Of a DNA stretch of 58,187 nucleotides, positions 26,854 to 32,861 are shown one piece after another (position 1 is the first letter of the stretch; each line of letters starts with the position of its first letter). Source of the stretch: Actinomycetota bacterium (GTDB lineage: Bacteria > Actinomycetota > Acidimicrobiia > Acidimicrobiales > Ilumatobacteraceae). The stretch spans positions 1-58,187 of the forward strand of contig RFTA01000001.1 of assembly GCA_009923685.1 (NCBI GenBank). The letters are read 5' to 3'. The notes beneath the pieces were generated by a model that did not search any database, was not told where the DNA came from, and saw only the letters and a list, made by a program, of their open reading frames with translations. The translations under genes were made by a program, and so were the position numbers.

Positions 26854-27543
26854 GTGCAGACCTTGCTATTCATTGAAGACGATCGCGACATTCGCGCCGC
26901 ATTAAGACTCGCGCTTGAAGATGAGGGATATAAAGTTCTCGAGGCCATTGATGGTGATTCTGGATTGAAAATCTTTTCGTCTGAAGTGGTTGATCTGGTG
27001 TTACTTGATTTGCGATTGCCCGATATGTCTGGCTTTGATGTTTGTCGCGATCTTCGTCGCAAGAGTCTTGTACCGATAATCATGGTCACTGCACAAACAG
27101 ACACCCATGATTTGGTTGCTGGTCTAGAGGCGGGCGCCGATGATTACGTGACAAAACCAGTCGTTGCAAAAGAACTCGCCGCACGCATCAGAGCCGCGCT
27201 AAGACGCACAACGCAAATGTCGGTCAACTCGTCAAGTCTCGATCGATTCAAAGTGCGCGACATTGAAATTCGAAGCGATCAAGGTGTTGTGCTGAAAAAT
27301 GACGCCGAGATTCCGCTGACGAAGACCGAATATCGTCTGTTGCACGTTTTCATCGAGAATGCAAACAAAGTCTTGTCGCGCGATCAATTGCTCGAACTCG
27401 TCTGGGGATACGAATATCTTGGTGATAGTCGCTTGGTTGATGCGCACATCAGGCGACTTCGATTAAAAATTGAAGATGTGCCTGATGAACCGCAAATTGT
27501 TGTGACGGTGAGAGGTATGGGCTACCGACTCTTGACTGCGTGA
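26854..27543 (+). CDS. mtrA: OmpR-family response regulator, MtrA-like
   Basis: 229 aa with a receiver domain (LLDLRLPDMSG, TAQTD, ADDYVTKP) and a winged-helix domain (LTKTEYRLL, VRGMGYRL). GTG start. Confidence 0.8.
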   Translation: MQTLLFIEDDRDIRAALRLALEDEGYKVLEAIDGDSGLKIFSSEVVDLVLLDLRLPDMSGFDVCRDLRRKSLVPIIMVTAQTDTHDLVAGLEAGADDYVTKPVVAKELAARIRAALRRTTQMSVNSSSLDRFKVRDIEIRSDQGVVLKNDAEIPLTKTEYRLLHVFIENANKVLSRDQLLELVWGYEYLGDSRLVDAHIRRLRLKIEDVPDEPQIVVTVRGMGYRLLTA

Positions 27544-29429
27544 GCCAAGAATTCTTTCGCTCTTTCTGGTTTCGATGTGAACTCCATAGGCGGCAACATT
27601 CCGACAATTGATTTGCCGTAGCCCTTCGTCACGAGTCTTGGGTCGAGAATGGCGACAACACCCATGTCTGTTTGAGTGCGAATTAGACGACCGGCAGCCT
27701 GAGCCAACTTGGTTGCCGCAATTGGTATGTCTATGGCAGTAAATGCCGATTTGCCATAAGCGTCGCGACGTGCGCTCATCAACGGATCTGTAGGCACCGG
27801 AAACGGAAGGCGATCAATTATCACGAGACTTAGCGTTTGGCCAGGTACGTCTACTCCTTGAAAGAAGCTTTGAGTCGCGAAGAGGCATGTTGCCTCGCTT
27901 TCGGCAAATTTTCGTAGCAGTTCCATTTTCGGCAAGTCGTCTTGCTTGAGAACTTTGAAATCAAGTTTGCGCTCGAGCTCTTCGTAGGCGGCATTGAGTC
28001 GCGCATAACTCGTGAACAACGCGAGAGTTCTGCCTCCGGCCGCGTTGATCAATTCTTCAATTTCTCGATGTACGACCTTGTCCCGCATGCCTTGTGCAGG
28101 GTCTGGCAAATGAGCGGCGCAATAAAGAAGTGAATTGTTTTCATAATCAAATGGACTCGCAACATGGCATGAATCAAAACTCTCGATCGGTAGACCAAGT
28201 CTTTCGGGCAAATTCGTCGGAATCGTCGCACTTGTGAGAATCGCTGTTCTCTGCGACCAAACCGACTCTTGAAGTGCCGCGCCTACGTTCAACGGACGCA
28301 TCTCAAGAGAGCATCGCTCGGCAGAACCCGCGATATAGGCGACATAGCCGTTGCGATCGGTGAGCGCCAGGTCAAGGTCTTCGATAAATCGAGTGCACAA
28401 TGATTGTGCACGAAGTTTTCTCTGCTTTGCTGCCTCATCATTTGTGACAATCGTTCGCAACGACTCGAGCACCTCGCTCGCGCGACCGCGCACTTCGATC
28501 AGTGTCTCGCGAGATTCATTTTCGAGGGGTAGGGCAACCCGCTTGTTCAAAAACGGCACGATGGCGTCACGCAATCTAGAAGCACTTTTTGCAAACCCCC
28601 CTGACATGGCATCGTCTCTGATTATCGAGCGCATCGCCGAACCAATAGTCGTGATTCGACTTGGCGAAATTGCGAGCCCGACTGAGTCGGTCACAACATC
28701 TTCAAGTTCATGAGCCTCGTCGAAAATTACGACATCATGCTCGCCAATTATCGTGCCTTCAGTAACGATGTCCAATGCGTAGAGCCAGCCATTGACAATG
28801 ACAATGTCAGAAGTTTGGCTTTGATTGCGTGCACGCTCAGAGAAACAACTCTCGCCAAATGGACATCGAGATGCTCCGGGGCATTCTTCGCTCGACACGC
28901 TGACCATCGACCAAGCATTGCGTTGTGGTTGCCAATCAAGTTCACCTTCGTCACCCGTATTCGTGGTTTCTGCCCACTCGCATAGTTTTCTGACATCGGC
29001 CTTTGTCTTGGCCGAAAGATCGTCAAGTTCGAGTCGAGATTGCGCTCGATCAGCGAGTTCTGCGATTCGTTGTCGACACAAATAGTTGTTGCGTCCTTTG
29101 AGTACGGTCCAAGTGAGTTCGCTTTCACGCGTCGGATTGAGCGACTTGGCGAGCAGCGGCAGATCATTTTGTGAAAGTTGATCTTGCAATGCCTTGGTTA
29201 CTGTAGACACGACAATTCGTCGACCTGAAACAATCGATGGCACCAAATATCCGAGCGTTTTGCCCGTGCCCGTGCCAGCCTGCACTATCAGATGTCGATT
29301 CTTGCGCAACGCACGACCGACCAGTATCGCCATTTCGTCTTGCCCCTGTCGCTCTTCGGCATTCGTAAGTTCGTTGGTGACTCGTCTTAGTGCATCAAGA
29401 ATTTCTTGATCAGCAGAGTTTGTAGGCAT
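27522..29429 (-). CDS. dinG: DinG/XPD-like ATP-dependent DNA helicase with an Fe-S cluster domain
   Basis: 635 aa with Walker A GTGTGKT and the DEAH box VIFDEAHEL. A Cys cluster (CRQR .. CPGASRCPFGESC) lies between motifs I and II. Confidence 0.8.
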   Translation of the reverse strand: MPTNSADQEILDALRRVTNELTNAEERQGQDEMAILVGRALRKNRHLIVQAGTGTGKTLGYLVPSIVSGRRIVVSTVTKALQDQLSQNDLPLLAKSLNPTRESELTWTVLKGRNNYLCRQRIAELADRAQSRLELDDLSAKTKADVRKLCEWAETTNTGDEGELDWQPQRNAWSMVSVSSEECPGASRCPFGESCFSERARNQSQTSDIVIVNGWLYALDIVTEGTIIGEHDVVIFDEAHELEDVVTDSVGLAISPSRITTIGSAMRSIIRDDAMSGGFAKSASRLRDAIVPFLNKRVALPLENESRETLIEVRGRASEVLESLRTIVTNDEAAKQRKLRAQSLCTRFIEDLDLALTDRNGYVAYIAGSAERCSLEMRPLNVGAALQESVWSQRTAILTSATIPTNLPERLGLPIESFDSCHVASPFDYENNSLLYCAAHLPDPAQGMRDKVVHREIEELINAAGGRTLALFTSYARLNAAYEELERKLDFKVLKQDDLPKMELLRKFAESEATCLFATQSFFQGVDVPGQTLSLVIIDRLPFPVPTDPLMSARRDAYGKSAFTAIDIPIAATKLAQAAGRLIRTQTDMGVVAILDPRLVTKGYGKSIVGMLPPMEFTSKPERAKEFLAHAVKSR

Positions 29430-29456: not shown

Positions 29457-30125
29457 TTAGCTCGTCACAAGGGCTATCGCGGCGTCGAGTTCAACTGCGT
29501 CAAAATCTGGCCAGGGTCGTTCGGTGAAATAGATCTTTGCTGCGTTGATCTGCCAGAGCAAAAAATTTGAAATTCGTGATTCGCCTGAAGTGCGAACCAG
29601 AACGTCGACCGGGGGAAGCGACTGGTCGTAAAGGTGCGATTGAAGATTTGCAGGTGTTAGTTCGCACCCGCTTTTGACCAGAAGCTTCGCCGCACGTGTG
29701 AGTTCGCTTCGCGAGCCATAGTCGAATGCAACCGTCAGCACCATGCCCGAATTTGACTTCGTGTCGTCGATCGCCTTGCGTATTGCGCGCTGAACATAAA
29801 GCGGTGTTCGTGAGCCCGGCTCATCGAACGGTCTACCTATCCAGTTGACGCGGACATTGTTTTCGTTTAGCTCTGCGATGCGACCAAAGAGTTTTTTGTG
29901 GAGTCCAAGGATGTGACGAACCTCGGCTCGTGGGCGAACCCAGTTTTCGGTTGAAAAACCAAACACGGTCAAATATGCGATCTCGCGTTTTGATGCTGCA
30001 CGAACAATGTCGGCAAGAGCCTCTTCACCTGCCGAGTGCCCAGCGGTACGAGGCAAACCCCGCTTACGGGCCCATCTTCCGTTGCCGTCCATGATGCAAG
30101 CCACATGAAGAGTTTTCGAAATCAT
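29457..30125 (-). CDS. uppS: cis-prenyltransferase (undecaprenyl/decaprenyl-diphosphate synthase family), catalytic motifs intact, C-terminal RXG tail absent
   Basis: 222 aa with IMDGNGRWA, FSTENW and RTSGESRISNFLLWQ. The protein ends ..WPDFDAVELDAAIALVTS, just before the point where E. coli UPPS has ..NRERRFGG. Confidence 0.85.
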   Translation of the reverse strand: MISKTLHVACIMDGNGRWARKRGLPRTAGHSAGEEALADIVRAASKREIAYLTVFGFSTENWVRPRAEVRHILGLHKKLFGRIAELNENNVRVNWIGRPFDEPGSRTPLYVQRAIRKAIDDTKSNSGMVLTVAFDYGSRSELTRAAKLLVKSGCELTPANLQSHLYDQSLPPVDVLVRTSGESRISNFLLWQINAAKIYFTERPWPDFDAVELDAAIALVTS

Positions 30126-30187
30126 TTGCTCAACGCTAACAACTCTGGTTGTCGAGGTGAGTTGTCTGGAAGTGAGAGAATGACATC

Positions 30188-30781
30188 GTGGTTAAAGCGT
30201 CTCGCGATCTGCACGGTGATTTGGCACATATCTTGGTGTGTGCGGGAACCGTGGTTGAGTGGCTGAAAACCACGTCTGATCAATGGAAGGTTCAGATTGA
30301 TGCGTTAGTTCGATCTGTTAGTGGCGTTGGGGTTCGCTGGCTTTCGATTTATCCATACTCTGGTCAGGCCAGCGCCATTGAGCGCACAGAAATTTGCAAT
30401 GCAATAATTTCGGTTTTTGGAGGCCAACGATCAGGTGATCGAGTTTCTGTCATCGCCGATCACGGTTTGGTGGTCGTTGTCGATACTTGTGCAAATGGAC
30501 AAGAACGATTCGTCAACGCGGTCGCACAATTGAGTAGCAGCCAAGAAATTGATGAAGACAAACTCGCAGCGACGCTTCTTTCGCCAGCTTCGGGCGAACC
30601 TGACTTGGTCTTGGTTCTGGGCTCGCCAACTCAGGTGCCTGAATCGTTGATGTGGGAGCTCGCTTATAGCGAACTCGTTTTTCTGAATGTTCCTTGGTTG
30701 CAATGCGATGTTGAGCACATTCAAATGGCGATTGGAGACTTTCAACGTCGTGATCGGCGCTTTGGCGGTGTCGACTCGTGA
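30188..30781 (+). CDS. degenerate UPPS-like paralog (probable non-catalytic cis-prenyltransferase-fold protein) retaining the C-terminal RRFGG
   Basis: 197 aa with a GTG start. HILVCAGTVVEWL aligns with H-IMDGNGRWA, with the Asp and Arg lost. VRWLSIYPYS aligns with the LTLYAFS region. PDLVLVLGSPTQVPESLMWELAYSELVF aligns with DLLIRTSGE-RISNFLLWQ-AYSELYF, with RTSGE lost. The C-terminus is QRRDRRFGG. The stop overlaps the recO GTG (GTGA). Confidence 0.7.
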   Translation: MVKASRDLHGDLAHILVCAGTVVEWLKTTSDQWKVQIDALVRSVSGVGVRWLSIYPYSGQASAIERTEICNAIISVFGGQRSGDRVSVIADHGLVVVVDTCANGQERFVNAVAQLSSSQEIDEDKLAATLLSPASGEPDLVLVLGSPTQVPESLMWELAYSELVFLNVPWLQCDVEHIQMAIGDFQRRDRRFGGVDS

Positions 30782-31503
30782 GTTTATATCGCGACAAGGC
30801 GATCGTTCTTCGTACCTATGATCTACGCGAGTCAGATCGCATCATCGTGATGATGAGCGAAGAACATGGCAAAGTCAGGGCCGTTGCTAACGGTGTACGC
30901 AAGATGTCGTCGCGCTTCGGTGCTCGTTTAGAGCCACTTAGTCACGTCGATGTTTTGTTGAGTCGGGGCAAAGAACTAGACACGGTAAGTCAAGTCGAGT
31001 TGGTTACAAGTGCGAGAGGCTTGTATACCGACCTCGACCGACTTACACGTGGCCTCGCAATGCTCGAAGCCGTCGACCAATTAGGTATGGATGGCGAGCC
31101 AACTCCGCATCTTTACAAGATGTTGGTTGGCGCACTGCAGTGGTTATCTGAAAATGACTCGGCACTCGTACTTGCAGCTTTTTATTTCAAGTTGCTCGTT
31201 GTTGAAGGAGTTGGCGCCCATGTCGACGACTGTGTTGGTTGCGGCGCGCCAGGTGAGAACATTGTCGCGTTTGATTTATTTCGGGGTGGTGGACAATGCC
31301 AAAGTTGCCGAAGCGGTGCAACGATTTCTAATGGTGCGATAAAGATTGTGCAAGACATTGTTGGGGGTCGATTGAACTTGGCTCTTGCTTTACCCGAGAG
31401 CGCCGCGACTCGCGAGGTTTCTGATCTTGCTACACGATGTATGGAGCATCACCTTGAGCGTCGACTGAAGTCGGTCGCGGTGTTTGAGCGTCCAGAGCAT
31501 TAG
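30778..31503 (+). CDS. recO: DNA repair protein RecO
   Basis: 241 aa with the N-terminal OB-fold sequence AIVLRTYDLRESDRI and a zinc-finger CVGCG..CQSC. Confidence 0.85.
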   Translation: MSLYRDKAIVLRTYDLRESDRIIVMMSEEHGKVRAVANGVRKMSSRFGARLEPLSHVDVLLSRGKELDTVSQVELVTSARGLYTDLDRLTRGLAMLEAVDQLGMDGEPTPHLYKMLVGALQWLSENDSALVLAAFYFKLLVVEGVGAHVDDCVGCGAPGENIVAFDLFRGGGQCQSCRSGATISNGAIKIVQDIVGGRLNLALALPESAATREVSDLATRCMEHHLERRLKSVAVFERPEH

Positions 31504-31553
31504 TTTCATTAATTTGACGGCAGTCACGCGGTTTTTTGTAATAGTCTGAACGG

Positions 31554-32861
31554 GTGCCAGCTAAAGATTTAGATCAGGTAGTCAACCTTTGTAAGCGTCG
31601 TGGATTCGTCTATCCAAGCGGCGAAATTTATGGTGGTTTTAGGTCTTCGTATGATTACGGGCCGTTGGGTTCGCTGATGTTGCGCAATGTAAAAGAAGCG
31701 TGGATTCGCACGATGGTGCAACAACGGGACGATGTCGTTTTGATTGACGCGGCAATTCTGGGCGCACCACAGGTTTTCGAGGCAAGCGGCCACTTGAGTA
31801 ACTTCAGCGACCCGTTAGTTGATTGCACGATCTGCAAGCGTCGCTTTCGTCAAGACCAAATTGACGACCGCGATTGTCCTCAATCAAAGAAGGGCTGCGA
31901 ATTCACTGACGCGCGTGCTTTTAATTTGATGTTCAAGACGCATGCTGGACCGGTCGAAGGCGAAGGTGCGACGGTCTATCTGCGACCAGAGACCGCTCAG
32001 GGCATGTTCGTAAACTTCGCGAATGTCTTGCAAACGAGTCGAAAAAAGCCTCCATTTGGTATTGCGCAAGTCGGCAAGAGTTTTAGAAACGAGATCACAC
32101 CAGGAAATTTCATATTTAGAACAAGAGAGTTTGAGCAAATGGAACTTGAGTTTTTTATTCCGCCCGCTGAGAGCGCTCAATGGTACGAATATTGGTGCAA
32201 TTCACGCATGCGGTGGTATGTCGATCATGGCATCCCTACAGAAATGTTGCGCATTCGTGAGCATGCAAAAGATGAACTGTCGCATTACTCGGCTGGCACG
32301 AGCGATATTGAGTTCTTGTTTCCTTGGGGATGGGGAGAACTCGAAGGTATTGCTCAGAGAACAGACTTTGATTTGAAGCAGCATGCCGAGCATTCAAGAC
32401 AGAAACTCGAATATTTTGACCAGACAACTAACGAGCGATATGTACCATATGTTGTTGAGCCGGCCGCAGGTGCAAACCGCACGATGGCCGCGTTCTTGTT
32501 GGCGGCATATGACGAAGATGTCGTAAATGATGAACCGCGCACAGTGTTGCGTTTGCATCCGAGGTTGGCGCCGTTTCAAATTGCCGTTTTGCCGTTATCG
32601 AAAAAAGACACTCTTATGCCTCTCGCCAAGAAGGTCCATTCGATGCTTGGTGCTAAATACATGTGCGACTTCGATGAAACACAGGCAATTGGTCGCCGCT
32701 ATCGTCGTCAAGATGAGGTCGGTACGCCGTTTTGTGTGACGATCGATTTTGATTCGCTCGAGGATGATTCGGTTACTATTCGCGAGCGAGATTCGACGGC
32801 ACAAAATCGCGTCAAGATTTCAGATTTGATGCAAGAGTTTTCACAAAGATTAGGTTTTTAA
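31554..32861 (+). CDS. glyQS: glycine--tRNA ligase (dimeric class II type)
   Basis: 435 aa with KRRGFVYPSGEIYGG, YLRPETAQG, FRNEITP and a C-terminal anticodon-binding domain. GTG start. Confidence 0.9.
   Translation: MPAKDLDQVVNLCKRRGFVYPSGEIYGGFRSSYDYGPLGSLMLRNVKEAWIRTMVQQRDDVVLIDAAILGAPQVFEASGHLSNFSDPLVDCTICKRRFRQDQIDDRDCPQSKKGCEFTDARAFNLMFKTHAGPVEGEGATVYLRPETAQGMFVNFANVLQTSRKKPPFGIAQVGKSFRNEITPGNFIFRTREFEQMELEFFIPPAESAQWYEYWCNSRMRWYVDHGIPTEMLRIREHAKDELSHYSAGTSDIEFLFPWGWGELEGIAQRTDFDLKQHAEHSRQKLEYFDQTTNERYVPYVVEPAAGANRTMAAFLLAAYDEDVVNDEPRTVLRLHPRLAPFQIAVLPLSKKDTLMPLAKKVHSMLGAKYMCDFDETQAIGRRYRRQDEVGTPFCVTIDFDSLEDDSVTIRERDSTAQNRVKISDLMQEFSQRLGF

Follow-up and report, generated by a model that had tools for sequence, protein, structure and literature searches.

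The window analysed here is a stretch of 58,187 nucleotides from an actinobacterium of the family Ilumatobacteraceae (contig RFTA01000001.1, assembly GCA_009923685.1), and our subject is a pair of divergent genes within it, both related to undecaprenyl diphosphate synthase (UPPS). The first gene, at 29457..30125 on the minus strand, encodes a UPPS of 222 amino acids, the proposed catalytic subunit, here called Cat. The second, at 30188..30781 on the plus strand, encodes a protein of 197 amino acids, the proposed accessory pseudoenzyme, here called Dead. The two start codons are separated by an intergenic region of 62 bp (30126..30187). A first-pass annotation, made from the DNA alone, had read the genes as a catalytic UPPS lacking the C-terminal RXG tail and an inactive paralogue that keeps it; its coordinates, the distance between the genes and its other statements on the sequence are all correct. 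According to our analysis, the lipid-carrier enzyme of Acidimicrobiia appears to be split into a tail-less catalytic protein and a tail-keeping inactive one, as has been demonstrated to date in eukaryotes and archaea alone.

Cat was identified with the Pfam family PF01255 (223 bits, cut-off 27, E 4.3e-66), with TIGR00055 (199.5 bits, cut-off 109.55), by matches to UPPS chains in the PDB with E-values down to 2e-49, and by alignment to the Escherichia coli enzyme (EcUPPS). Both Cat and Dead were aligned to the EcUPPS sequence, whose C-terminal part matches the PDB alignment. All the catalytic signatures that the first-pass annotation had ascribed to Cat are present, i.e. the Region I motif DGNGRW (30072..30089, minus strand, EcUPPS D26-W31), FSTENW (29940..29957, minus strand) and the segment RTSGESRISNFLLWQ that binds isopentenyl diphosphate (IPP) (29550..29594, minus strand, EcUPPS R194-Q209). 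Cat retains D26, N28, G29, R30, R39, H43, S71, N74, W75, R77, R194, E198, R200 and S202, and its catalytic residues are at least 95% conserved across 73 orthologues. The protein is 40% identical to EcUPPS and 19% identical to Dead. Its identity to canonical Acidimicrobiales UPPS, 44-48.5%, is slightly above the 34-44% found for other bacteria.

The missing tail of Cat, also part of the first-pass annotation, is seen in several ways. The protein ends in ...ALVTS, which corresponds to about residue 238 of the E. coli enzyme, about four residues before the RXG motif (R242-F243-G244). The match to PF01255 covers profile positions 1-209 of 219, and the ten positions missed are the RXG tail. Cat starts six residues ahead of the first strand and stops directly after the last core helix, with no tail beyond helix alpha7. 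The gene for a DinG/YoaA-like helicase begins 27 bp past the stop codon, which leaves no space for a tail hidden downstream. A protein search with Cat returned near relatives only (at least 84% identity), and the five that were spot-checked are all tail-less, including an entry of 257 amino acids with an N-terminal mis-call. Residues 98-102 of Cat (29820-29834, minus strand) form an insertion of four to five residues, RPFDE, within WIGRPFDEPGSRTP; it is missing from E. coli UPPS and from canonical Acidimicrobiales UPPS and is kept in all Cat orthologues.

Dead matches PF01255 with 46.9 bits (gathering score 27) and an E-value of 3.2e-12, over profile positions 120-219 of 219, i.e. including the end of the profile. 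The protein retains PDLVLVLG...SLMWELAYSELVF and ends with DFQRRDRRFGGVDS. Its C-terminus, QRRDRRFGGVDS, aligns residue for residue to the tails of bacterial UPPS (F-x-x-R-x-RRFGG), with the RRFGG of the RXG motif at 30755..30769 on the plus strand (EcUPPS R241-R242-F243-G244 region). The catalytic residues are lost, as had been noted for the equivalents of DGN..R and RTSGE. At 30221..30265 (plus strand) a degenerate Region I, LAHILVCAGTVVEWL, replaces the RHVAIIMDGNGRWA-type motif, and the equivalents of D26, N28 and R30 are gone; AGTVVEW stands in place of MDGNGRW, and SGQASAIER in place of SSENWNRP. In the alignment to EcUPPS, R39, H43, N74, W75, R77, R194, E198 and S202 are missing as well. 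Two deletions are found, one of seven residues over R39 and one of 18 residues over helix alpha3, a helix lining the product tunnel. The six-residue catalytic stretch of Region I and all of Region II are thus absent and Region III is degenerate, as in the accessory class of subunits (bioRxiv 10.1101/139675).

An AlphaFold2 model of Dead, built from an alignment of 49 sequences, has a mean predicted local distance difference test score (pLDDT) of 82.6 and a predicted TM-score of 0.81, with pLDDT below 50 only at residues 1-9 and 194-197. When the model was compared with the PDB by Foldseek, the top 50 structures listed all belonged to the cis-prenyltransferase family (bacterial UPPS, plant short-chain synthases and human NgBR). 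The probability was 1.0 for UPPS and NgBR chains, with E-values of 5e-8 for Bacillus subtilis UppS and 9e-7 for NgBR (6z1n_B, 22% identity). According to the model, the cis-prenyltransferase fold spans the entire protein, beyond the C-terminal half, and the UPPS fold claimed for the 197-residue open reading frame (ORF) therefore holds. Dead has no transmembrane region.

Neither chain is of the homodimer type, which has catalytic Region I and RXG together: Cat is without RXG and Dead is without Region I. A second complementary loss, not part of the first-pass annotation, concerns the pair Y211/E213 of EcUPPS. This pair is invariant in Dead, within WELAYSE, and is replaced in Cat (WQINAAKIYF), where INAAK (29535..29549, minus strand) takes the place of the canonical I-A-Y-A-E and varies among orthologues. 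Where the pair would follow the WQ motif, the orthologues of Cat have K, R, A, P, T or E. The human proteins, whose sequences were checked against the PDB chains, show the same split between DHDDS (WQTSHSC) and NgBR (WHIRLTE) for the E213-type glutamate only, as NgBR has L at Y211. The glutamate thus accompanies the RXG tail in both of these independent systems, and this co-variation is a testable structural prediction.

For a survey based on Dead, one genome per species was used; at least 457 genomes encode a relative, and the best 80 were analysed (L001-L080). A protein database search with Dead gave 2240 matches. All 80 genomes are Acidimicrobiia-type metagenome-assembled genomes (MAGs), mostly Ilumatobacteraceae. 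Seven of the records (L004, L006, L008, L010, L011, L027, L043) bear the title 'Bifidobacterium breve', 'uncultured Bifidobacterium sp.' or 'Ferrithrix thermotolerans DSM 19514'. Judging by the identity of 70-90% between their genes and those of Ilumatobacteraceae MAGs, these organism names look wrong. The gene order dinG and cat on one strand, followed divergently by dead, recO and glyS, is found in 78 out of 80 species genomes, and the remaining two contigs lack the upstream DNA. The presence of the pair in 78 genomes is far beyond chance. The RXG motif is absent from all 74 Cat ORFs that adjoin dead and have a complete 3' end, and all 80 orthologues of Dead have R-R-F/Y-G. The complementary loss described for DHDDS and NgBR, to which the first-pass annotation had likened the pair, is thereby present across the survey.

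The dead ORF is intact in all 80 genomes, over a span of 32-89% identity. For Dead, the ratio of nonsynonymous to synonymous substitution rates (dN/dS) between the window and close relatives, where dS is unsaturated, is 0.037-0.047, for Cat it is 0.029-0.063, and recO gives similar values. With a dN/dS of about 0.04, dead evolves under strong purifying selection. The conservation is unevenly distributed along the protein. Across the 80 loci, conservation reaches 95% or more at 31 positions, of which 21 fall in residues 133-170 or 184-197. Residues 133-170 have a mean top-residue frequency of 0.76 and contain 16 such positions, and WELAYSE (30653..30673, plus strand, EcUPPS W207-E213 region) reaches 95% or more at most of its positions. 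In the N-terminal half the mean top-residue frequency is 0.38-0.53, and residues 61-132 are poorly conserved. In known cis-prenyltransferases the betaE-betaF region is the dimer interface (PMC7573591); it matches residues 133-170 of Dead, and residues 184-197 are the tail. In Cat, conservation peaks at the catalytic regions, and the very places at which Dead is invariant are variable in Cat. With a mean distance of 0.95 vs 0.36, Dead evolves 2.7 times faster than Cat. Among five syntenic genes, the distance matrices of Cat and Dead are each other's best correlation, with r 0.81 and, once the other three genes are removed, partial r 0.43.

A reverse survey started from Cat, in metagenomes, and gave 80 contigs that are Acidimicrobiia-like. 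Cat is tail-less on 79 of them, and dead is adjacent on 62. Fifteen contigs with 36-544 bp of upstream DNA show no match to dead, several of them being too short to judge. Tail-less homologues thus come with the partner gene, in 74 out of 74 cases in the species genomes and adjacently on 62 of the 80 metagenome contigs. A tailed Cat on contig L141 was considered as a counterexample to the split and rejected, as it is an assembly chimera at a contig end with a coverage of 2.7x. At L141:4001-4870 a Cat-type N-terminus is joined to a canonical UppS C-terminus and then to a cdsA-like start (MLRQRIITALVLVAFLL...). The similarity to the nearest relative stops in the C-terminal part of the gene, past the conserved WQ motif. 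A CdsA-like N-terminus is encoded by the final 150 bp or so, as in a uppS-cdsA operon of another organism. Across the 80 species genomes and the 80 metagenome contigs, every non-chimeric Cat is without RXG.

The start codon of recO, GTG, overlaps the stop codon of dead, TGA, by 4 nt (GTGA), as the first-pass annotation had it. In all 80 loci the gap between dead and recO is at most 41 nt, and the 4-nt overlap was inferred in 48 of them. This linkage of dead to recO is conserved throughout the class Acidimicrobiia. When a profile of Dead was compared with 1.84 billion representatives, 329 matches had an E-value of 1e-10 or lower; of the top 150 clusters (50% identity), about 100 have lost the catalytic motifs and kept the tail. 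A subgroup with high G+C, here called dead2, has the tail RRDRRYGGLV and includes MAG proteins titled 'Acidimicrobiales bacterium'; its genes sit directly upstream of a small ORF that is followed by recO. A profile search with dead2 found 44 dead proteins, five half-degenerate ones that still have RTSGE but no longer DGN, and 60 complete UPPS in which RXG and all the motifs are present.

The complete enzymes P0452 (Acidimicrobiales, GCA_025463925.1) and P0474 (on a contig of 1.03 Mb) are encoded at the same site, directly upstream of recO. They are divergent from dinG or nearby genes, and recO is followed by glyS and the gene for pyruvate phosphate dikinase (PPDK). The half-degenerate P0433 occupies the same site before recO, as do further dead forms. 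Canonical Acidimicrobiales UPPS and the dead proteins also share the unusual sequences WELAYSE and E[YF]QRRDRRFGG. In hhalign, the profile of Dead obtains 99.5% (E 2.5e-22) with P0474 vs 81.8% (E 1e-5) with human NgBR, and in phmmer Dead scores 48 bits with bacterial UPPS vs 20.6 bits with NgBR. The adjacency to recO is the mark of the ancestral uppS site. Together, the site, the shared signatures and the hhalign scores identify Dead as the positional descendant of the ancestral housekeeping uppS and not as a relative of NgBR. Going beyond the first-pass annotation, we conclude on this comparative evidence that Dead is the decayed original recO-linked uppS of the class, and that its likeness to NgBR is probably functional and of independent origin. 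Cat may come from an old duplication or from horizontal transfer.

With a probability of about 0.72, we propose that Cat and Dead form a heterodimeric cis-prenyltransferase that arose independently in bacteria and whose RXG tail is given in trans by the pseudoenzyme. Cat would bring a complete active site, i.e. the site for Mg2+ and farnesyl diphosphate (DGNGRW, FSTENW) and the IPP site (RTSGESRIS), and it would have no RXG segment to close the site of a partner. By analogy with the known heteromers, Dead would bind Cat physically through the conserved betaE-betaF/helix interface. Its RRFGG tail would cross that interface, where R191-F192-G193 would complete the IPP/Mg2+ site of Cat, giving one active site per dimer. 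The product, and likewise its length, would by the same analogy be that of a polyprenyl diphosphate lipid carrier. The pair could have originated by duplication, degeneration and complementation inside Acidimicrobiia: the original uppS upstream of recO would have lost catalysis and kept the interface and the tail, and a second UPPS gene would have kept catalysis and lost the tail together with the coupled Y/E residues.

Published work describes how these parts act in other enzymes. The Region I catalytic motif and RXG are both indispensable, on one chain or on two (bioRxiv 10.1101/139675). The G244A variant of homomeric EcUPPS fails to complement, and RXG is needed in heteromers too (bioRxiv 10.1101/139675). 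In the human complex the tail of NgBR reaches over the interface; L291 and G292 contact the S2 phosphate with their backbone amides, and R290 can substitute for Mg2+ (PMC7573591). A transverse interaction of the tail is also seen in homodimers (PMC7573591, PMC8131916). As a homodimer, DHDDS has an activity about 400-fold below that of the heteromer (PMC7573591).

Several observations weigh against the proposed heterodimer. The adjacency of the two genes is not universal, as three Cat contigs with more than 1 kb of upstream DNA carry other genes there. The correlation between the distance matrices of Cat and Dead is modest, and its r and partial r are given without significance. At residues 194-197, in the tail, the model of Dead is of low confidence, which is expected of an unbound tail and gives no positive evidence for the donation. 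The archaeal homodimer MM_0014 works alone without RXG, though it keeps another C-terminal tail (PMC8131916). Finally, no catalytic UPPS was found within +/-10 kb of the dead2 genes of other Acidimicrobiales.

The last two points bear on a different explanation, in which Cat is a self-sufficient homodimer independent of a tail, and Dead has a role other than that of a subunit, as a regulator, as a protein that binds or senses polyprenyl phosphate, or in a function tied to recO. The activity of MM_0014 as an RXG-less homodimer (PMC8131916) speaks for it, and so does the linkage of Dead in many Acidimicrobiales to recO rather than to Cat, with no catalytic UPPS within +/-10 kb. However, in Cat the tail is absent altogether, unlike in MM_0014, where it reaches the site of the partner. 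The best-conserved parts of Dead are the interface strand and the R-RRFGG tail, which both have no known role outside an active site, and the loss of the Y/E pair in Cat mirrors DHDDS. The deletion of the tunnel helix alpha3 argues against the binding of a lipid by Dead. We regard this explanation as unlikely.

A further explanation accepts the heteromer and makes it a specialised second enzyme, with another chain length or pathway, next to a complete homodimeric UPPS encoded elsewhere that makes the carrier for peptidoglycan. Many Actinobacteria do have at least two cis-prenyltransferases, e.g. Rv1086 and Rv2361c in Mycobacterium tuberculosis (PMC7839719). Against this, no third PF01255-like or UPPS-like sequence occurs within the 58-kb window, which was the extent of that search. 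Dead also sits where relatives keep the canonical uppS, so the housekeeping gene itself has decayed. In addition the genomes are streamlined, and a contig of 1.19 Mb from one relative is probably most of its genome. A specialised second enzyme is therefore a rather improbable reading of the pair. That Dead is a decaying pseudogene of the old uppS, held open by chance or by its translational coupling to recO, would fit the loss of all catalytic residues and the poorly conserved N-terminal half, but both this and a chance ORF are extremely improbable and were rejected on selection and conservation, given an ORF intact in 80 out of 80 genomes, the low dN/dS, the near-invariant tail and interface, the confident compact fold, and the same type of protein in about two thirds of the top clusters (about 100 of 150).

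Returning to the proposed heterodimer, it seems on balance probable that it is an obligate bacterial heteromer that evolved independently, is fixed across much of Acidimicrobiia, including the abundant freshwater acIV lineages, and would be the only source of the peptidoglycan lipid carrier there. As part of the same joint reading, and to the same degree, we think that living relatives hold the full series from the complete enzyme over the half-dead form to the fully dead accessory protein, with RXG and the E213-type glutamate partitioned as in DHDDS and NgBR.

The genes for the helicase and for glycyl-tRNA synthetase are syntenic context and no part of the enzyme. The helicase gene (27522..29429) is on the minus strand like cat and begins 27 bp downstream of it. 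Its product scores 506.5 bits, under the NCBIfam YoaA cut-off of 680. On the other side are recO (30778..31503, plus strand, TIGR00613 140.8 bits) and a glycyl-tRNA synthetase gene of the glyQS type (31554..32861, plus strand). Throughout the class (window and L001-L080) the UPPS pair lies between the helicase gene and recO, and no other gene pair tested has distance matrices as strongly correlated as those of these two (raw r 0.87, partial r 0.72). In the clade of the window, glyS comes directly after recO (the gap in the window is 31504-31553). In the high-GC relatives L081-L087, L173 and L174 a radical-SAM gene is found between recO and glyS, and PPDK follows glyS. The 62-bp intergenic region (30126-30187) presumably holds the promoters of both cat and dead; a promoter consensus scan of the region detected none. 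At the start of the window, positions 1-2000 have a G+C content of 0.44 vs about 0.50 over the remaining window.

In the high-GC Acidimicrobiales, the small ORF between the dead or half-dead UPPS and recO encodes 66-114 amino acids and overlaps both neighbours by 4 nt (L083:5702-5914; L084:6732-6932; L086:6630-6881; L087:2834-3178; L091:6771-7058; also in L173 and L174). It contains two predicted hydrophobic helices (V[RS]VT[RK]I..GVVVLG.LC.LA..GFT...LVTV..LV.LV.GGNWL.GR) and is found neither in the window nor in L001-L080. It is pure speculation that the small protein might be a membrane tether of the complex, like the transmembrane region of NgBR.

Some degenerate relatives do not fit the recO-linked pattern. 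P0361 (L088:6001-6741) and P0364 (L089:6001-6639) are UPPS-like proteins that keep an RXG-type tail and have lost the DGN motif. Their contexts are unrelated, one being a polysaccharide locus (epimerase, Bac_transf, GT4) and the other lying beside an HTH_5 regulator. Pseudo-UPPS proteins may thus exist outside Acidimicrobiia. Of two odd proteins from the search of representatives, P0328 (353 amino acids) and P0365 (237 amino acids), one is an apparent read-through or fusion of a dead UPPS with recO, and the other repeats the C-terminal half of a cis-prenyltransferase in tandem; both are possible artefacts of gene calling or assembly.

In public databases Cat is annotated as an ordinary UPPS or a decaprenyl synthase, and Dead as 'hypothetical' or 'UPPS family protein'. 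UPPS is currently treated as a single-gene antibiotic target. If the proposal is confirmed, thousands of entries that now carry the name 'undecaprenyl diphosphate synthase' are probably accessory subunits without activity. Confirmation would further mean that the architecture of a catalytic subunit and an RXG donor arose more than once. It would provide a soluble prokaryotic model, free of membrane anchors, for activation by the tail of a pseudoenzyme, the mechanism affected in human DHDDS/NUS1 disease. It would also make the canonical, half-degenerate and dead proteins at one syntenic site a rare natural series for the subfunctionalisation of an essential enzyme.

In the literature searched, heteromeric cis-prenyltransferases are described only for eukaryotes and archaea (PMC13586052; bioRxiv 10.1101/139675), in agreement with the first-pass annotation, which knew of no established bacterial example in the recO/uppS context. 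According to a 2026 review, all characterised bacterial cis-prenyltransferases are homodimers or homomeric (PMC13586052). The systems DHDDS-NgBR and Rer2/Srt1-Nus1 resemble our pair in that the catalytic subunit has all the active-site motifs and is without RXG (PMC7573591; bioRxiv 10.1101/139675). NgBR and Nus1, like Dead, are pseudoenzymes of the same fold, without the Region I/II residues and with the Region IV-V interface and a C-terminal RXG. Two more features are shared with systems of the DHDDS-NgBR type: a glutamate following the W-x motif that the accessory subunit retains and the catalytic subunit has lost, and a higher evolutionary rate of the accessory subunit.

There are also clear differences. 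NgBR and Dead are not orthologous, and NgBR has a transmembrane region, whereas Dead has none. DHDDS has an N-terminal membrane-sensor helix and, at its C-terminus, a helix-turn-helix; Cat has neither, and a heterotetramer of the human kind is therefore not expected. The tail of Dead, RRFGGVDS, is of the bacterial type, whereas that of NgBR ends in RLGK-COOH. Unlike in eukaryotic systems, the genes of Cat and Dead are adjacent and divergent, and the gene of the accessory protein is coupled to recO.

The archaeal systems MaUPPS-A/B (Methanosarcina acetivorans), MM_1083/MM_0618 (Methanosarcina mazei) and Af1219/Af0707 (Archaeoglobus fulgidus) are likewise prokaryotic, soluble and made of two subunits without transmembrane domains. 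The activity of the archaeal heteromers depends on the glycine in the RXG motif of subunit B, and the product is a glycosyl carrier lipid of C45-C55 (bioRxiv 10.1101/139675; PMC8131916; PMC13586052). By its description, the archaeal accessory subunit is NgBR/Nus1-like, whereas Dead appears to derive from a bacterial recO-linked uppS with extant intermediates. In the RXG-less MM_0014, a TLGG tail covers the cavity of the partner and the acceptor specificity is relaxed, whereas Cat has no tail and an otherwise canonical UPPS active site; the match between the two is weak (E 3e-13). Homodimeric UPPS (E. coli 1JP3/1X06; B. subtilis 7JLI) has the same fold, the catalytic residues of Cat and the tail sequence of Dead, but with active site and tail on each chain, whereas in our pair they are found on separate chains. 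Cat and Dead thus seem functionally like the heteromeric cis-prenyltransferases while standing outside their orthologous groups, a placement that is well supported by the comparison of sequences.

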